A stretch of DNA of 64,000 bases from an uncultured Thermoprotei archaeon (GTDB taxonomy: Archaea; Thermoproteota; Thermoprotei; Thermofilales; B15-G2), in the NCBI GenBank assembly GCA_965367815.1, contig CBDUKN010000001.1, forward strand, positions 1-64,000, read 5' to 3'. Each line of letters starts with the position of its first letter. The stretch's first letter is position 1. Below, in pieces: positions 19,861 to 24,832 of this stretch. The position numbers and the translations under genes were made by a program. The notes under the pieces are model-generated. The model searched no databases and was not told where the DNA came from. It was given only the letters and a program-made list of their open reading frames with translations.

Positions 19861-20042
19861 TAGAATACTAGCACAAAAGAACTATCTATTCATTTCGTTT
19901 AAACAGTTCACAGCGAATTACCAGTTTTTTATGTTCTCGTATAGTAAAGGATTATTGGAACAACGCTAGAGTTAAAGCTTACTGTAGCTTATAAGATAAA
20001 AATTAAAAAGAGCAAATTTACTTGTTTATTTATTCTTGATTT

Positions 20043-21062
20043 CTAAAGTACATATAATATTCTTTCAGGAAACTCTTGATATATAACAATCCATTCTTTT
20101 TTAATGGAATATACCTTAGAAACAGCTATTTTAGGAATGATGACTTCGAAGCATGGGCTTACCTCATGTTCAGTAATTATTTTTTCAGCGCTATCTGTTA
20201 AGTAAATGTAAGTGTTTATTTCGAGGGGATGTGCATTTAGTGTTTTTAGAATATCTAAATATTTTTCGTGGCCTATTATTTGAATCCAATGTGCTTTAGT
20301 TGATTTTTCAAAGCTTTTAAGTAATAGGTTTAATGTTTTTCTAATGTTATATTTTTCGTTTAGCCATATTCCTGTAACTACTCTTTTAATGAAATTAAAG
20401 TGCGCCTGTTTTTTGGAAGTTGTAAGAATTAAGGGAGTTTCCTGGTTTGTAGCTAAGCCCGTTATTACACCTAATATAGTTTCTTTTTTATGTAAAGCTA
20501 TTAAACTATGTCTAATATATTTTATAGTTTTTGTTTTATTGTCTTTATTTAAGAAAATTTTATACAAGTATATGGTGCCGTGCTCTAACTTGTTTATCTG
20601 TTCGGCAACAAAGTTAACTATTTTCTTATAGATTTCCGGCTTCTTTTCTTGTAAATCAATATATTTTGTTTGAAATAGCCTAATTAAATAATCTCTAAAT
20701 ATATCTAAGTAACTGCCTTTAAGAAAGCATGTCTCTACTTCATGCTCATCGAAATTCTCTCCCAAAGATACTTCCGTATTTTCTACTTCATTTAAGGCGT
20801 CTGATACCGCCTCGCCTTGCCTTGTTAACCTGTATCCTTCACTAGTTTTCTCTAATATTCCTGCTTTACATAGCTGTTTTAAGTGATAATCAAGAAGCCC
20901 GCACTGTGTTAATGGATTTAGATTAAGAGCTTCTAGAAGATCTGTGAAGCTTGCATGTTTTCTTTTCCTAATAGTTTTCGCTATTGTGAGTCTTGCTGGA
21001 TGTGATAGCGCTTTAAATATTAATGCTATCTCTTTCATATCTATCAGTAGTATTACTTGCAT
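20043..21062 (-). CDS. ArsR-family winged-helix regulator with large C-terminal (GNAT-like?) domain
   Basis: IFKALSHPARLTI...LDYHLKQL...YRLTRQG. C-terminal fold is uncertain. Alternative start ATG 21038. Confidence 0.7.
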   Translation of the reverse strand: MQVILLIDMKEIALIFKALSHPARLTIAKTIRKRKHASFTDLLEALNLNPLTQCGLLDYHLKQLCKAGILEKTSEGYRLTRQGEAVSDALNEVENTEVSLGENFDEHEVETCFLKGSYLDIFRDYLIRLFQTKYIDLQEKKPEIYKKIVNFVAEQINKLEHGTIYLYKIFLNKDNKTKTIKYIRHSLIALHKKETILGVITGLATNQETPLILTTSKKQAHFNFIKRVVTGIWLNEKYNIRKTLNLLLKSFEKSTKAHWIQIIGHEKYLDILKTLNAHPLEINTYIYLTDSAEKIITEHEVSPCFEVIIPKIAVSKVYSIKKEWIVIYQEFPERILYVL

Positions 21063-21255
21063 TAAAACTTATATTCTTTTTTAACAAGAAATTTTGTTAT
21101 AATAATTTATATCTAACTCTTATAAAACATTTAGCAAGATATTATTCAATCTAATTAACTAAACTAAGTATTCACTCAAAACTATCAGCTTTGATTCCGA
21201 CTGTTTTACTGCAAGCTTTACAGTATTCAGAAACAAGGTCTCTGTGAGCTAGCCA

Positions 21256-21301
21256 TTTGCATATGTTCCATATATTAGGGTATTGTAGGAACAAATGCAA
21301 A
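21256..21301. promoter_or_regulatory. 14-bp inverted repeat (putative operator) abutting the BRE/TATA of the peptide gene
   Basis: TTTGCATATGTTCC (21256-21269), 18-bp spacer, GGAACAAATGCAAA (21288-21301); 13/14 complementary. TATA-like TTTTATTA at 21303-21310. Confidence 0.65.
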
Positions 21302-21333
21302 ATTTTATTAGAGTGAGTGGGAAAGAACTAAAC

Positions 21334-21504
21334 ATGAGCTGGATAAAACTCTATCTCAAAAACCTATTCTCAAACAAAAAATTCCTCTTCCTAATGTTAC
21401 TACTTGTAATAGTTCTGATAAATGCAGGACATGTGTTAGCCTTAAGTGACGAGCCTCAACCTCCACCTCATTCGGATCCTTCGCCTGAACCAGATCCAGC
21501 TTAG
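21334..21504 (+). CDS. Small secreted propeptide (signal peptide plus Pro/Asp-rich tail)
   Basis: MSWIKLYLKNLFSNKK (basic n-region), FLFLMLLLVIVLINAG (h-region), HVLA cleavage site, then LSDEPQPPPHSDPSPEPDPA. TATA about 24-31 nt upstream of the ATG (leaderless). Confidence 0.75.
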   Translation: MSWIKLYLKNLFSNKKFLFLMLLLVIVLINAGHVLALSDEPQPPPHSDPSPEPDPA

Positions 21505-21515
21505 GGTGTTAAGGA

Positions 21516-22514
21516 ATGATCTTAAAAAAGCTAAATCAGCGTACATGGCAAGTGATTAAATCTTTGTCGGATTCACTAAGCATTAGTGAAATTTCGAGAA
21601 AAACTGGCATACCTAAAACTACTGTATGGAGAATAATAAATGAAATACTTTCGTTAACTAGAGTGAGGTTTGTGGTCTCTAGCAGAGCATTAAGACTTAG
21701 ACCGTTAGTAGCTATTTTCGATAAAGGGCCCACACTTTTACCTGATTACACAATATCGTACAGGGAAATATTGGTTAGCGGAAGAAAAATGCATATGACA
21801 ATAGGTTTTGTTCCAGACGAATATATTTCAGAATATATCAATCTCTTTGACGAGGAACCATTATATGTATTTGAAAATGAAGAGAAATTCATATGGAAGC
21901 CAAATGTTGCTGAAAGAATGAAAGTATTATCATTTGAAAACGGAGAAATAAAAATAAATTACGATATATTAGAAAGAATTAAATCAAAAGCAGAAAAGAA
22001 AACTTCTTCAGGTATAGACCTTTATGACTTGTACATTATCAGATGGAAGGAGCACTTTGCTTTCACTTCTTTAACTGAGATTCAAGAAAAAATGTACAAA
22101 GAGAAAATAATAGCCTCAAGACAACTTCTATCATATCATTTCAGAAAACATGTACTACCTCTTTGGATTGGAAACACTGTTAAACTATATAGGCCTATGA
22201 GAGAATATCCGATACGAATGTTTGTATATGAATGCGACAATGCCGAAGAAGTAGCTTTTAAATTATCTCTTTTACCTTATGTATATACAATATATTTCTC
22301 GAGCAAAACAATATTCTTTACAGGACAACCCAGTTCTAAGGAAGTTTTCAATCTTTACGATAAAATATTGTCAGAATATAATCCAACTCCGCTATTATGC
22401 GAAGCTTATATTAAGCCTTCATTTTATAAATTCGTAATAAGATACAACGAGCTTTGGAATAAAAGTTGGAAGAAGCCTACAATAGCTTACAAGATAAAAG
22501 TGAAAGGTAAGTAA
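21516..22514 (+). CDS. Tandem HTH (Lrp/AsnC-like duplicated) transcriptional regulator
   Basis: HTH1 SISEISRKTGIPKTTVWRII; second unit IDLYDLYII...SLTEI...SRQLLSYHFRKHV; each followed by a RAM-like alpha/beta segment. Starts 11 bp after the peptide stop. Confidence 0.75.
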   Translation: MILKKLNQRTWQVIKSLSDSLSISEISRKTGIPKTTVWRIINEILSLTRVRFVVSSRALRLRPLVAIFDKGPTLLPDYTISYREILVSGRKMHMTIGFVPDEYISEYINLFDEEPLYVFENEEKFIWKPNVAERMKVLSFENGEIKINYDILERIKSKAEKKTSSGIDLYDLYIIRWKEHFAFTSLTEIQEKMYKEKIIASRQLLSYHFRKHVLPLWIGNTVKLYRPMREYPIRMFVYECDNAEEVAFKLSLLPYVYTIYFSSKTIFFTGQPSSKEVFNLYDKILSEYNPTPLLCEAYIKPSFYKFVIRYNELWNKSWKKPTIAYKIKVKGK

Positions 22515-22684
22515 TTTATTAACAATTTTATATAATTTTATTTTATAGTAAATTTTGAAGTATTTTTATATATTTTTAATAATATTGCATGTATTGAAAA
22601 TTATACTTTTAATAAAAAGTATTCTAATTAACAGCTATTAAAATACGATAAAAATGTCAATTAAATTTTCTTATTTAATTAGAA

Positions 22685-23743
22685 TTAGATAGTGTGTTTT
22701 ATTTCTTTTGGAGACTTTAGTTTTTCTACGGTTTTTGTTACTAGTCTTATTGTATTTTCTACGTCTTCTAGGTTTAGTAGGCAGCAGGGTGTGTGTATGT
22801 ATCTCACTGGAACTGATATAACGACTGAGGGTATTCCTTTTCTCGTTAAGTGAATTCTACCTGCATCAGTGCCACCAGCGTATGAAATCTGTATTTGATA
22901 CGGTATTTTTTCTTCTTCAGCTACCTTAACTATGAACTCGAAGAGTTTTCTTTGAGCTATCATTGTGGGGTCTATTAGTCTTATGGCAGGTCCCTTTCCT
23001 ACTCGTGTTATTACGTCGCTTTGAGGTACTTCGGGTGTATCTGCGGCTACTGTTCCTTCGAGAACTATTGCCAGTGAAGGGTTTATCGCGTATGCTGCTA
23101 CTCCTGCTCCACGTAGACCTACTTCTTCTTGAACAGTAAATACAGCGTAGATTGTTGGTACAGTTTCTTTAAGTCTTTTCAGTGTTTCTATTAGAACAAA
23201 GCACCCTACTCTGTCGTCGAAAGCTTTTCCTGTTACAATTTTAGGTGAAAATATTTGAAAATCTCTGTCAAAAACAGCTACGCAGCCTTCGCGTACACCC
23301 ATTTCTTTAGCTTCTTCAGCACTTCTCGCTCCAAAGTCTATATAGAGGTCTTTTATGGGAATAGCTTTACTTCTCTCTTCAGAACTTGTTATATGCGGGG
23401 GCTTAAAGCCTATTACTCCCCGTACAGGTTCTTTTTCAGTCAAAATTACTACTCTTTGGCCAGGCAGTATGCGAGGATCTATTCCTCCTAAGGCCATAAA
23501 TTTAGCGAACCCATTGTTGTCTATGAACCTTATAAGTAAACCTACTTCATCCATGTGTGCGGCTATCATTACTTTGAAGTCTTTTTCTTTACCATATTTT
23601 ACTGCTATAAGGTTTCCCAAATTATCTACGCTCAGCTCATCTACATAGTCTTTGATATATTTGGCTATTAGTTCTCTAACTTTATCCTCGAAGCCTGGCG
23701 GCCCAGGGACATTGCTTAACTCTTTAAGTATTTCTATATCCAC
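22685..23743 (-). CDS. M42 family aminopeptidase (TET-like)
   Basis: PGPPGFE, AAHMDEVG, KAFDDRVG, QEEVGLRGA, GGTDAG, RYIHT. Start GTG 23743. Confidence 0.95.
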   Translation of the reverse strand: MDIEILKELSNVPGPPGFEDKVRELIAKYIKDYVDELSVDNLGNLIAVKYGKEKDFKVMIAAHMDEVGLLIRFIDNNGFAKFMALGGIDPRILPGQRVVILTEKEPVRGVIGFKPPHITSSEERSKAIPIKDLYIDFGARSAEEAKEMGVREGCVAVFDRDFQIFSPKIVTGKAFDDRVGCFVLIETLKRLKETVPTIYAVFTVQEEVGLRGAGVAAYAINPSLAIVLEGTVAADTPEVPQSDVITRVGKGPAIRLIDPTMIAQRKLFEFIVKVAEEEKIPYQIQISYAGGTDAGRIHLTRKGIPSVVISVPVRYIHTPCCLLNLEDVENTIRLVTKTVEKLKSPKEIKHTI

Positions 23744-23838: not shown

Positions 23839-24381
23839 GTGGTGAAGAAAAGTCTCAGAGTTTCGCTGATAGCAGTTCTTACAGCGCTAGGCATAGCATT
23901 CAGAGTATCTAAGAATGCTATTACACAAATTCAGTTCATAAATATTCCTCTAGCATTTACTATGGTTGGAGGCTATTTAGGAGGCCCGCTAGTTGGAGGC
24001 ACTGTAGGCCTATTTACTTTCATAATATCAGATTTCATTATTTTACCAGGTCCCTGGACAGTAGTCGACTCTCTATTAGCATTTATTATCGGCGTTTTCT
24101 GGGGAACTATACGTAAATTCATTTCAAGCAAACTACAAGTGTTCATTACAGCATTTTTCTCAGAGCTACTGTATGACATTGCTTCATCAATAGTTCTATA
24201 CATTGCTATAGGAATGGATGTGATGAAAGCTCTTGTTGTAGGTATTGTAGGACTATTTCTTCCTGTATGTGGAGGCTTTATTTTTGGTGTAGGGCCGATG
24301 ACTGAATTATCTACGGCTTTTCTTTCCTCACTAATAATTGTGCATTTAGAAAAGATAGGGGTGATACCTTATGAAAAGTAG
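23839..24381 (+). CDS. ECF transporter S component (CbrT-like)
   Basis: About 180 aa with 5-6 TM helices, SLIAVLTALGIAFR N-terminus and GPWT motif. Confidence 0.75.
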   Translation: MVKKSLRVSLIAVLTALGIAFRVSKNAITQIQFINIPLAFTMVGGYLGGPLVGGTVGLFTFIISDFIILPGPWTVVDSLLAFIIGVFWGTIRKFISSKLQVFITAFFSELLYDIASSIVLYIAIGMDVMKALVVGIVGLFLPVCGGFIFGVGPMTELSTAFLSSLIIVHLEKIGVIPYEK

Positions 24382-24832
24382 GTTCTTTAGTATTATTGTA
24401 GTAGTGCTACTAGTATGGGCACTAGCGGCATCTAGCCTGGCTGCCTACTATTGGCTAGAGTATTCTAAATACAAGAAGCTTTATGAGAGACTTAGCGTTA
24501 AAGTGATAGTCGTAAACGTAGGTATTGACTATGGCAACGGAACTGTAATATGGTATAACAACACAGTACTACCTGCAGGCAGCACTGTTCTATCTGCTTT
24601 AGTTCAAGTAGCAAAAGTAGAGTACAAGGTATTTCCTTTCGGAGCCTATATTATTTCAGTGAATGGAGTTTCAGAAAAAATACTTTCAAAGAAAGAGGGT
24701 TACTCGTGGATGTGGTACATATACGACAAGAAAAAAGGCAAAATGGTTCTAGGTCCTACTGCAGCAGACAAATACGAGTTGGCTAACGGCGATACTATCC
24801 TATGGAAATACGAACACTGGAGTTTCCCTTAA
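24371..24832 (+). CDS. DUF4430 (transcobalamin-like) membrane-anchored protein
   Basis: N-terminal TM, IDYGNGT, TVLSAL, GAYIISVNG, WMWY, AADKY..NGDTI. Confidence 0.85.
   Translation: MKSRFFSIIVVVLLVWALAASSLAAYYWLEYSKYKKLYERLSVKVIVVNVGIDYGNGTVIWYNNTVLPAGSTVLSALVQVAKVEYKVFPFGAYIISVNGVSEKILSKKEGYSWMWYIYDKKKGKMVLGPTAADKYELANGDTILWKYEHWSFP

Follow-up and report, generated by a model that had tools for sequence, protein, structure and literature searches.

Why should an archaeal gene for a very small, apparently exported protein stand directly in front of a gene for a putative transcription regulator? This question is raised by a two-gene cassette in the window analysed here, a stretch of 64,000 nucleotides from an uncultured Thermoprotei archaeon of the order Thermofilales (positions 1 to 64,000 of contig CBDUKN010000001.1, assembly GCA_965367815.1). 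Positions are given in window coordinates and refer to the + strand unless stated otherwise; the window's own genome, G000, comprises 2.45 Mb. The first gene of the cassette (ATG 21334 to TAG 21504, 56 codons) encodes the putative peptide precursor MSWIKLYLKNLFSNKKFLFLMLLLVIVLINAGHVLALSDEPQPPPHSDPSPEPDPA and the second (ATG 21516 to 22514) a tandem Lrp/AsnC-like protein of 332 residues. A first-pass annotation, made from the letters of the window, had proposed the two as a propeptide and its receptor behind a common operator. Both open reading frames (ORFs), the 11-nt gap between them and an inverted repeat in front of them are indeed present where it had placed them. We tentatively favour the reading that the two genes make up a self-contained operon under its own control, in which the exported product acts back on the regulator.

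The peptide gene and the regulator gene form a conserved pair

A profile of the regulator, built from alignment A1, matched 98 members of the family, of which 91 were assessable; in the other seven the N-terminus was missing or fewer than 300 nt were available upstream. Family members occur in 39 of the 41 genomes of the order, with one to eight matches each and five in the window's genome. Upstream ORFs were judged by a strict rule, formulated after the first examples had been seen, which demands an apolar stretch 15 residues long and, behind it, a tail of 8-45 residues in which proline makes up 20% or more and two or more D/E-P or P-D/E pairs occur. Such an ORF was found on the same strand upstream of 26 of the 91 family members. 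Four more peptide ORFs were recognised by eye (L009, L025, L063 and L069), which brings the number to 30 of 91; one locus is counted twice, L001 and L035 being two strains. This bears out the expectation of the first-pass annotation that a small signal-peptide ORF with a variable tail adjoins homologs of the regulator. Applied to both strands of the whole 2.45-Mb genome, the strict rule selected four ORFs, three of which are true family members. This density predicts 0.03 such ORFs in the 91 upstream windows, compared with the 26 found, a gap of three orders of magnitude.

Seen from the side of the peptide, a profile of 25 peptides (alignment A2) found matches in 31 of the 41 genomes of the order at E ≤ 0.01 and in 29 at E ≤ 0.001, and in none of 79 genomes from other orders of the class at E ≤ 0.001. 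At E ≤ 3e-4 there were 41 peptide matches. When coordinates were compared by eye, 35 of them lay upstream of a family match; the remaining six comprise three with a diverged family gene that is seen by profile only, one at a contig end and two true orphans. In total, 38 of the 40 assessable peptide genes are located directly upstream of a regulator-family gene on the same strand. A peptide-like ORF in genome G292 was rejected, as its next ORF reads by eye as V-type ATPase subunit D and not as a family gene.

The distance from peptide stop to regulator start ranges from -32 to 121 nt in 25 cassettes and is mostly short, and several of the intergenic gaps carry GGTG- or GGAGG-like motifs. In the window, a Shine-Dalgarno-like GGTG (21505-21508) lies within the 11-nt gap, 7 nt before the regulator ATG. 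Peptide and regulator are probably co-transcribed. The pN/pS values of the peptide, the proportions of nonsynonymous to synonymous differences, are 0.24-0.65 in eight pairs, rough ratios because pS is near saturation. Differences are in excess at third positions and indels are in-frame. With this substitution pattern, the peptide ORF is a real conserved gene under purifying selection and not a chance ORF. The annotation had allowed that the small ORF might be a 5' remnant of some longer surface protein. It is not, since its family is uniform in length and evolves under purifying selection. A search for longer relatives yielded none, which is weak evidence. A metagenome scan gave a sole match, the 99%-identical strain L035, whose peptide ORF differs by one synonymous change, too small a difference to carry weight.

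A maximum-likelihood tree was calculated for 87 members, leaving out three rows with fewer than 250 matched residues as well as L035. The 29 peptide-linked members are spread over many clades of this tree. Peptide presence requires 12 state changes compared with a mean of 24.5 after shuffling, and none of 500 shuffles was as low, which indicates that the pair is old and that the peptide was lost repeatedly. In genome G036, a recent duplication (L060 at ~27.5 kb and L063 at ~414 kb of contig C1) spans exactly the promoter, the peptide gene and the regulator gene. The apolar core of the peptide has diverged most between the duplicates and the tail is altered; the intergenic spacer is highly conserved and holds a TATA-like TTTTAAATA. 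The flanking genes of 24 scanned cassettes are heterogeneous and include no conserved partner or output gene. Because the neighbours vary, the duplication spans the exact unit and the gaps are mostly short, the module is self-contained.

Of 401 genomes sampled from the phylum, 42, most of them in the order, matched the family profile at E ≤ 1e-6. In family f10, two diverged loci outside the order have upstream ORFs of similar build, with ADPDPS or DDPL at the end. The peptide profile gives them E values of just 0.16 and 0.4, and they were taken as leads and not counted. Two f26 relatives, L209 (G131) and L226 (G452), have unrelated signal-like ORFs of 65-75 residues upstream, likewise leads that were not counted. 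Outside the order, too, small exported ORFs may be paired with double helix-turn-helix (HTH) proteins.

The peptide has the build of an exported propeptide

In the proteins of the peptide family, which have 44-75 residues, a basic n-region leads into a short apolar core, and a small-x-small site is followed by an Asp-Pro-rich tail. In the window peptide, residues 1-16 form the basic n-region (net charge +4), residues 17-29 the apolar core and residues 30-36 a polar c-region ending in VLA. By the -3/-1 rule, cleavage is predicted after VLA, and the predicted mature tail comprises 20 residues (residues 37-56, 21442-21501), LSDEPQPPPHSDPSPEPDPA. Among the 25 aligned members, the n-region has 14-23 residues and a net charge of +1 to +7 (median +5), with a recurrent pattern of W/K/F/L that ends in N-(K/R)-(K/R)-F. 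The apolar core is uninterrupted and has a median length of 14 residues (range 6-19). A polar stretch with charged residues often lies between the core and the cut site, and a small-x-small site, e.g. VLA, ALA, VIA or GIA, is present in 24 of the 25. Since the apolar core is short and the c-region is charged, the peptide probably suits a cleavable Sec signal better than a membrane anchor. Two other export signals were rejected by eye, the class III (pilin-type) signal for want of G/A before the apolar core and the twin-arginine signal with KK, RK or PR at the RR position.

The tails of the 25 members have 10-38 residues, are composed of 33% proline, 19% aspartate and 10% glycine, and are mostly net negative. 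They contain 60 Asp-Pro dipeptides, 2.5 times the 24.5 ± 3.9 of composition-preserving shuffles within tails (maximum 36 in 1000). This indicates that the Asp-Pro pair itself is under selection, beyond composition. Of all peptide bonds, Asp-Pro is known to be the one that heat and acid break most readily, and in a hyperthermophile such lability could set the lifetime of the peptide or release fragments.

Conservation within ortholog groups was confined to certain parts of the peptide. The n-region and the tail core are conserved, whereas apolar core and linker are variable. Scores for the last eight residues are 0.95, 0.79 and 0.62 in groups B1, B2 and C, compared with 0.57, 0.38 and 0.41 for the mid-region. 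These last eight residues are the best-conserved part in three of five ortholog groups, preceded by a linker that varies in sequence and length, and in groups F and D a conserved core directly follows the cut site. Such a layout is suggestive of a propeptide with a C-terminal active part.

The n-region and apolar core (21334-21441 in the window) weakly resemble the N-terminal transmembrane domain of OppC/DppC permeases, and it is possible that the peptide gene originated from the 5' end of a permease gene. It is even conceivable that cleavage is slow or absent and that the small protein, descended from an OppC/DppC-type permease segment, sits N-in in the membrane and modulates a peptide transporter, with the regulator sensing an imported solute. 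The Pfam domain OppC_N (PF12911) is found below its cut-off in three of 25 peptides (best E 0.0024, 18.1 versus 23.9 bits), and hhalign against 28 local OppC N-termini gave E 4.9e-5 (probability 68%, 33 columns), the reversed control giving E 0.065. A true OppC N-terminus (G039:C45) is weakly matched by the peptide profile, and a conserved, amphipathic n-region (median hydrophobic moment 0.66) would suit a membrane protein that modulates a transporter. However, the likeness is weak and covers a transmembrane stretch, where chance resemblance is common. To anchor the protein stably, most of the apolar cores would have to be longer, and charges precede the small-x-small site. Moreover, no Opp genes are adjacent, and the ORFs end after 44-75 residues with no permease domain. 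We therefore consider a transporter modulator improbable and regard the small protein as a putative exported propeptide.

The regulator resembles a fused pair of Lrp/AsnC units

The first-pass annotation had described the 332-residue protein as two HTH plus ligand-binding-like units. In Pfam and NCBIfam, a sub-threshold N-terminal HTH alone is seen, and no RAM domain. The query matches HTH_Tnp_ISL3, HTH_23, HTH_24 and HTH_IclR at its N-terminus, all below their cut-offs, and the RAM domain PF01037 matched neither the query nor 33 family members, the six canonical Lrp genes of the genome being detected. The two-unit description was upheld by matches of distant homologs in Pfam, by profile-profile comparison, by an AlphaFold model and by structure search. 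HTH_24 matches 11 of 33 family members (best E 3.3e-7). Among 24 distant representatives, 13 have an AsnC-type HTH or HTH_24 at ~183-243, 12 have an N-terminal HTH and five are without any. When compared by hhalign with 30 canonical Lrp proteins of the order, the N-half gave E 2e-9 (probability 96%) over the HTH and the first strand, and the C-half E 5.9e-4 from the HTH through the second strand. The match between N-half and C-half is weak (E 0.035).

In the AlphaFold2 model (33 sequences from A1; mean predicted local distance difference test score 92.8, predicted template modelling score 0.89), the protein folds into two units, each with three helices and then an alpha/beta domain. Unit 1 spans residues ~8-154 and unit 2 residues ~169-326, with opening helices at 8-45 and 169-216. 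On the DNA, the first HTH (residues ~11-45) corresponds to 21546-21650 and the second (residues ~168-220) to 22017-22175; the helices of the second are modelled at 169-180, 186-195 and 202-216. Residues 233-305 of unit 2 follow the order strand-helix-strand-strand-helix-strand of RAM/ACT-type domains, and unit 1 has an extended, strand-rich domain. The second HTH gathers six of the family-invariant residues, D168, D171, H208, H212, W217 and N220, with the two histidines one turn apart in the third helix, which may still read DNA or may instead form a metal or ligand site. The full set of invariant residues also comprises W11, P100, W127 and P232. Because W11 is invariant in the family, the start at ATG 21516 was preferred over a recorded form of 320 residues.

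The model was compared with 48,161 solved chains (40% representatives), among which closer solved relatives may be missing. About a dozen Lrp/AsnC regulators match unit 2 almost end to end with modest Z values of 5.4-6.6, among them the whole chains 2dbb_B (Z 6.6, 136 of 148 residues), AsnC 2cg4_B (Z 6.1) and LrpA 1i1g_B (Z 5.7). Unit 1 is matched by 3i4p_A (Z 5.5). We give these modest values weight because whole chains are covered and hhalign agrees. Both alpha/beta domains together resemble ferredoxin-like repeat proteins. A sequence search of the PDB with the family profile gave a weak match to FL11/PH1519 (E 0.009) and none with the C-half, and an atlas search with residues 216-332 yielded leads only. 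The family is small, with 255 clusters at E ≤ 0.001 among 1.84 billion representatives. Taken as modelled, the 332-residue protein is best seen as a Lrp-like pseudo-dimer whose two units are fused and share a single cavity between their domains.

By far the best solved match is 4czc_A, the fused siroheme decarboxylase NirDL (Z 12.8, root mean square deviation 4.8 over 257 residues), the second-best match having a Z of 8.6. The protein might thus be a NirDL/AhbAB-like enzyme or ligand carrier, and the small gene an unrelated neighbour or a substrate-related factor. NirDL/AhbA-AhbB also consists of two Lrp-like units that form one cavity between their C-terminal domains (PMC4145669). In AhbA/B this inter-domain cavity holds an anionic tetrapyrrole, and an HxYxR motif lining it is reported to be conserved in AhbA/B and homologues (PMC4145669). 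Radical-SAM neighbours at four of 24 scanned cassettes could be read in favour of an enzyme. Unlike the decarboxylases, however, the family has no HxYxR motif. An H.Y.R string occurs in one of 87 members and at no conserved column; the query has TISYR at residues 79-83. PF17805 (AsnC_trans_reg2) had no match in the whole genome at E ≤ 0.01, so that the window's genome is without an Ahb-type domain match, whereas the control detected it in three archaeal genomes that bear the pathway. On both grounds, the identity as siroheme decarboxylase was rejected. Sequence identity to 4czc is 13%, and one to eight diverged copies per genome, each with its own operator at its own promoter and operators specific to clades, differ from what is known of NirDL/AhbA-AhbB. 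An enzyme or carrier is thus highly improbable, and the putative regulator remains the preferred description. The comparison places a NirDL-like fused Lrp fold, if the model is right, outside tetrapyrrole metabolism.

Certain arginines distinguish regulators with and without a peptide. R83 is kept in 93% of 29 peptide-linked members compared with 31% of 58 peptide-less members, R39 in 83% compared with 31% and R234 in 69% compared with 30%, all uncorrected for relatedness. The contrast at R83 (and at R39 and R234) is a hint that the tail may bind in the cavity.

An inverted repeat in front of the putative promoter follows the regulator clades

The inverted repeat of the window consists of a distal arm, TTTGCATATGTTCC (21256-21269), and a proximal arm, GGAACAAATGCAAA (21288-21301), which are complementary at 13 of 14 positions and separated by an 18-nt spacer. 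The proximal arm abuts the TATA box and overlaps the expected position of the B recognition element. The TATA-like element itself, TTTTATTA (21303-21310, +), ends 23 nt before ATG 21334 and marks the putative promoter. A second A/T run, ATATATTA (21270-21277), is located inside the loop of the repeat. The annotation had pictured a TATA box flanked by the repeat; both elements are there, but both arms lie upstream of TTTTATTA, so that it is not flanked. An in-frame ATG at 21295 would extend the peptide to 69 residues, and the peptide ORF is absent from the protein collection with either start. In view of the conserved TATA position and the aligned peptide N-termini, we favour ATG 21334, with a leaderless or near-leaderless mRNA. 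In nearly all of the 25 cassettes, a TATA-like element lies among the last 40 nt before the peptide ATG and ends ~19-32 nt from it as judged by eye, a spacing that fits a leaderless or short-leader mRNA.

In the 130 nt scanned before the peptide ATG, many cassettes carry a repeat at about -78 to -46, whose arms measure 10-16 nt and whose loops measure 11-22 nt. Under uniform scoring, with at most one mismatch and a loop of 10-26 nt, a repeat with at least 10 matches was found in 9 of 25 cassettes compared with 1.8% of 500 shuffles, and in 5 of 61 peptide-less members, there mostly with A/T-only arms. The arm sequence is specific to clades of the regulator: GGAACAAATGCAAA is shared by the window and L006, TGCAAAAATGGCA occurs in an eight-member clade, GAAACAAAAACT in another and ATCAAAGTCAAA in a further one. 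Members of one clade keep the proximal arm and the TATA element across taxonomic families, but not the loop and the flanks. In each regulator clade the proximal arm lies 0-3 nt from the TATA-like element, and a comparison of 24 related cassettes identified the conserved TATA as the one after the proximal arm. The repeat is unchanged in strain L035. The operator that the first-pass annotation had suspected thus finds its counterpart in an operator-like element conserved across related cassettes. This footprint-type evidence points to a functional site read by the cognate regulator, with activation and repression indistinguishable.

The half-site of the window was also used to scan the genome. 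Among 221 matches with up to three mismatches there are just two correctly spaced pairs, including the window's own. The other pair (C15:18323/18355) has the same 18-nt spacing and precedes a gene of 107 residues. A half-site with one mismatch, together with a TATA element, precedes an orphan peptide gene (C1:235497). The 107-residue gene belongs to a genus-restricted family of small proteins of ~80-107 residues, which is present in 2 of the 41 genomes and has copies at C15:17965-18368 and C1:234859-235101; its 81-residue member has no Pfam match. Both copies, the one behind the repeat on C15 and the one after the orphan peptide gene, are candidate targets of the window regulator.

Proposed feedback by an exported product or possible regulation of an exported payload

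In the feedback module that we favour, the double-Lrp protein would bind the repeat and control transcription of a leaderless peptide-regulator mRNA. The peptide would be exported and cut after the small-x-small site, and the product of the peptide gene would feed back on the regulator. The module would then report on its own exported product, and the state reported could be cell density, confinement or export status. In the form that we prefer, the acidic tail core would be re-imported and bound in the inter-domain cavity. In a less likely form, the conserved amphipathic n-region would be left in the membrane after cleavage and contact the regulator there.

The closest known parallel in layout is offered by the RRNPP systems of Firmicutes and their phages, in which a small propeptide gene adjoins the gene of a cytoplasmic HTH regulator (PMC10075063 and 10.1101/2021.08.18.456871). 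As in Rap-Phr, PlcR-PapR, NprR-NprX and AimR-AimP, the propeptide gene is adjacent (11 nt from the regulator gene in the window), the propeptide has a putative secretion signal, judged here by its sequence anatomy alone, a conserved core resides in the C-terminal part behind a variable linker, and genomes contain several diverged copies, 'solo' regulators and orphan peptides. In contrast to these systems, the receptor candidate is a fused double Lrp/AsnC-like protein without a TPR domain: Pfam TPR models matched neither the query (E ≤ 1) nor the 33 members (E ≤ 0.01), and the model contains no helical repeat array. In the operon the peptide gene precedes the regulator gene. The acidic tails, in which proline makes up about one third, have a PDP core in common. 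The n-region, too, is conserved, and the hosts belong to a single order of heat-loving archaea. The cassette is RRNPP-like in layout but without the defining receptor feature of that family.

Compared with Lrp/AsnC regulators, the protein appears to share an AsnC-type HTH followed by a ferredoxin-like effector domain, and a putative operator upstream of its own promoter. It differs in that two units are fused in one chain of 332 residues instead of a single dimerising unit of ~150 residues, in that PF01037 is undetected and the domain of unit 1 is extended and strand-rich, in the 32 bp from centre to centre of the repeat arms, and in the linked peptide gene. Enterococcus sex pheromones are cut from lipoprotein signal peptides by an intramembrane protease and act outside the cell. 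They would parallel the minority version of our reading, in which the n-region is the active part, and rhomboid genes adjoin three peptide loci; unlike the peptides studied here, however, they derive from lipoprotein signal peptides and act extracellularly.

Several observations weigh against a feedback loop. The peptide is missing at 61 of the 91 family members, and three genomes of 95-99% completeness (G033, G035 and G038) have two to three family genes each and no peptide match. Among close orthologs the peptide may be present or absent with decayed remnants visible, e.g. beside L002, whose ortholog L036 retains it. Orthologs that differ in peptide presence imply that the regulator can work without a cis-encoded peptide. 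The n-region is conserved as strongly as the tail, which an export signal alone does not account for. A PDP-like core is common to all peptide types and thus less private than the pheromones of known systems. The contrast at R83 lacks a correction for relatedness, and known Lrp/AsnC effectors are amino acids. With 32 bp from centre to centre, the repeat arms exceed the span of one Lrp-type dimer. Finally, a TATA-like element stands between the two genes of some cassettes and could there give the regulator a separate promoter.

Several of these points speak for the main rival, in which the exported Asp-Pro-rich peptide is only a regulated product with an extracellular role, such as surface, metal or mineral binding, adhesion or that of a short-lived heat- and acid-labile factor. 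The double-Lrp protein would then be a dedicated autoregulated transcription factor that senses an ordinary small molecule. Such an arrangement would accommodate the 61 of 91 members and the whole genomes without a peptide, the possible separate promoter and the PDP core common to tails across paralogs. Family-invariant residues are kept irrespective of peptide presence, and the Asp-Pro excess (60 versus 24.5 ± 3.9) points to a property of the tail itself. On the other hand, the near-obligate linkage of 38 of 40 peptide genes and the duplication as a unit exceed what a payload needs. The propeptide-like layout, the arginine contrasts between peptide-linked and peptide-less regulators and the lack of any other conserved output gene nearby also speak against a mere payload. 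We regard a payload as a serious alternative, little less likely than the feedback module, which is the tentative preference.

A more far-reaching version of the feedback module would make the cassette the first archaeal peptide-based cell-to-cell signalling system, in which Sec-exported, signal-peptidase-processed Asp-Pro-rich peptides are sensed by a cytoplasmic fused double-Lrp receptor. In this joint reading, the peptide would bind in the cavity, the operon would regulate itself and each diverged cassette would provide a channel of its own. Regulators without a peptide would eavesdrop, peptides without a regulator would broadcast, and selected heat- and acid-labile Asp-Pro bonds would set the lifetime of the signal at 80-90 °C. 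Taken together, this full combination is unlikely to be correct.

Every named record of the regulator and the peptides that was looked up in the protein collection is annotated as 'hypothetical protein', and peptide sequences are identical to records from named Infirmifilum species (records of up to 1.88 Mb). In the open-access literature no description of the cassette was found, nor any archaeal propeptide-receptor pair. Archaeal cell-to-cell communication is poorly understood; a 2025 study describes it as little known and cites the carboxylated acyl-homoserine lactone of a methanogen as an example (PMC12240190). The cassette may represent a peptide-linked circuit, regulatory or signalling, for which archaea have so far offered no described counterpart. 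This candidate can be tested, and its parts lend themselves to experiment: the peptides are defined and 10-38 residues long, the soluble receptor candidate is modelled with a confident fold, and the operator is defined. Should feedback fail and the peptide be payload only, there would still be a new regulator family of fused double Lrp-type proteins, almost confined to one order, and a new, so far unannotated family of putatively exported Asp-Pro-rich micro-proteins. The cassettes would also remain a clear example of operator sequences that change with regulator clades in Thermoproteota.

Neighbouring genes and related loci

Although no gene accompanies the scanned cassettes throughout, a few types recur. 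Radical-SAM or SPASM genes lie beside four of the 24, two of these four loci being orthologous, rhomboid genes adjoin the three peptide loci mentioned above, including an orphan, and metallo-beta-lactamase (MBL)-fold genes adjoin two scanned cassettes and are near two further loci. As several of the loci are mutually orthologous, rhomboid, radical-SAM and MBL genes were not counted as conserved partners. The radical-SAM and SPASM genes, together with a small precursor-like ORF that has a conserved core, could be taken to indicate a locus for a ribosomally synthesised and post-translationally modified peptide (RiPP) or an archaeocin, in which a modified or antimicrobial peptide would be made from the product of the small gene, with the HTH domains serving in leader recognition or as immunity regulator. 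Yet no modifying enzyme, protease or exporter is consistently linked, the leader resembles a Sec signal peptide and not a RiPP leader, the acidic, Pro-rich tail is unlike most membrane-active peptides, and the HTH units match DNA-binding Lrp/AsnC proteins. A RiPP locus is the least probable of the explanations considered here.

The orphan peptide gene of the window's genome (G000:C1:235275-235490, - strand; L096:2773-2967) encodes 64 residues and is the third peptide gene of that genome. A rhomboid protease gene stands upstream of it, ORFs of 51 and 81 residues come after it, and no family regulator is adjacent. In the sister genome G001 the syntenic order is rhomboid, peptide, family regulator and a homolog of the 81-residue protein. 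Since the syntenic locus has the regulator, it seems to have been lost at the orphan locus of G000.

The window cassette lies between a divergent upstream gene and a convergent downstream gene, the latter encoding an M42 aminopeptidase. The region 19861-22684 has a GC content of 0.302 compared with 0.386 genome-wide; the AT-rich islet of the first-pass annotation is real but mild. The regional minimum, a GC content of 0.118, is reached in the 170 nt that separate the regulator gene from the convergent M42 peptidase gene (22515-22684). Rfam gave no match over 20000-23000 at E ≤ 1, and a scan for sigma-70 promoters and terminators, which is not meaningful for an archaeon, stayed at the level of shuffled sequence. 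The divergent gene (20043-21062, - strand) encodes a protein of 339 residues, in which a long C-terminal part accompanies an ArsR-like winged helix (DUF7347, E 3.6e-11); no linkage of this gene to other cassettes was found. Strain L035 has a 9-nt insertion at 20099, inside this gene. Further downstream (23839-24832, +), a weakly recognised membrane protein of 180 residues, similar to S-components of the energy-coupling factor (ECF) type, overlaps the start of a DUF4430 protein of 153 residues with an N-terminal apolar segment. A similar ECF-like gene is located downstream of cassette L051.

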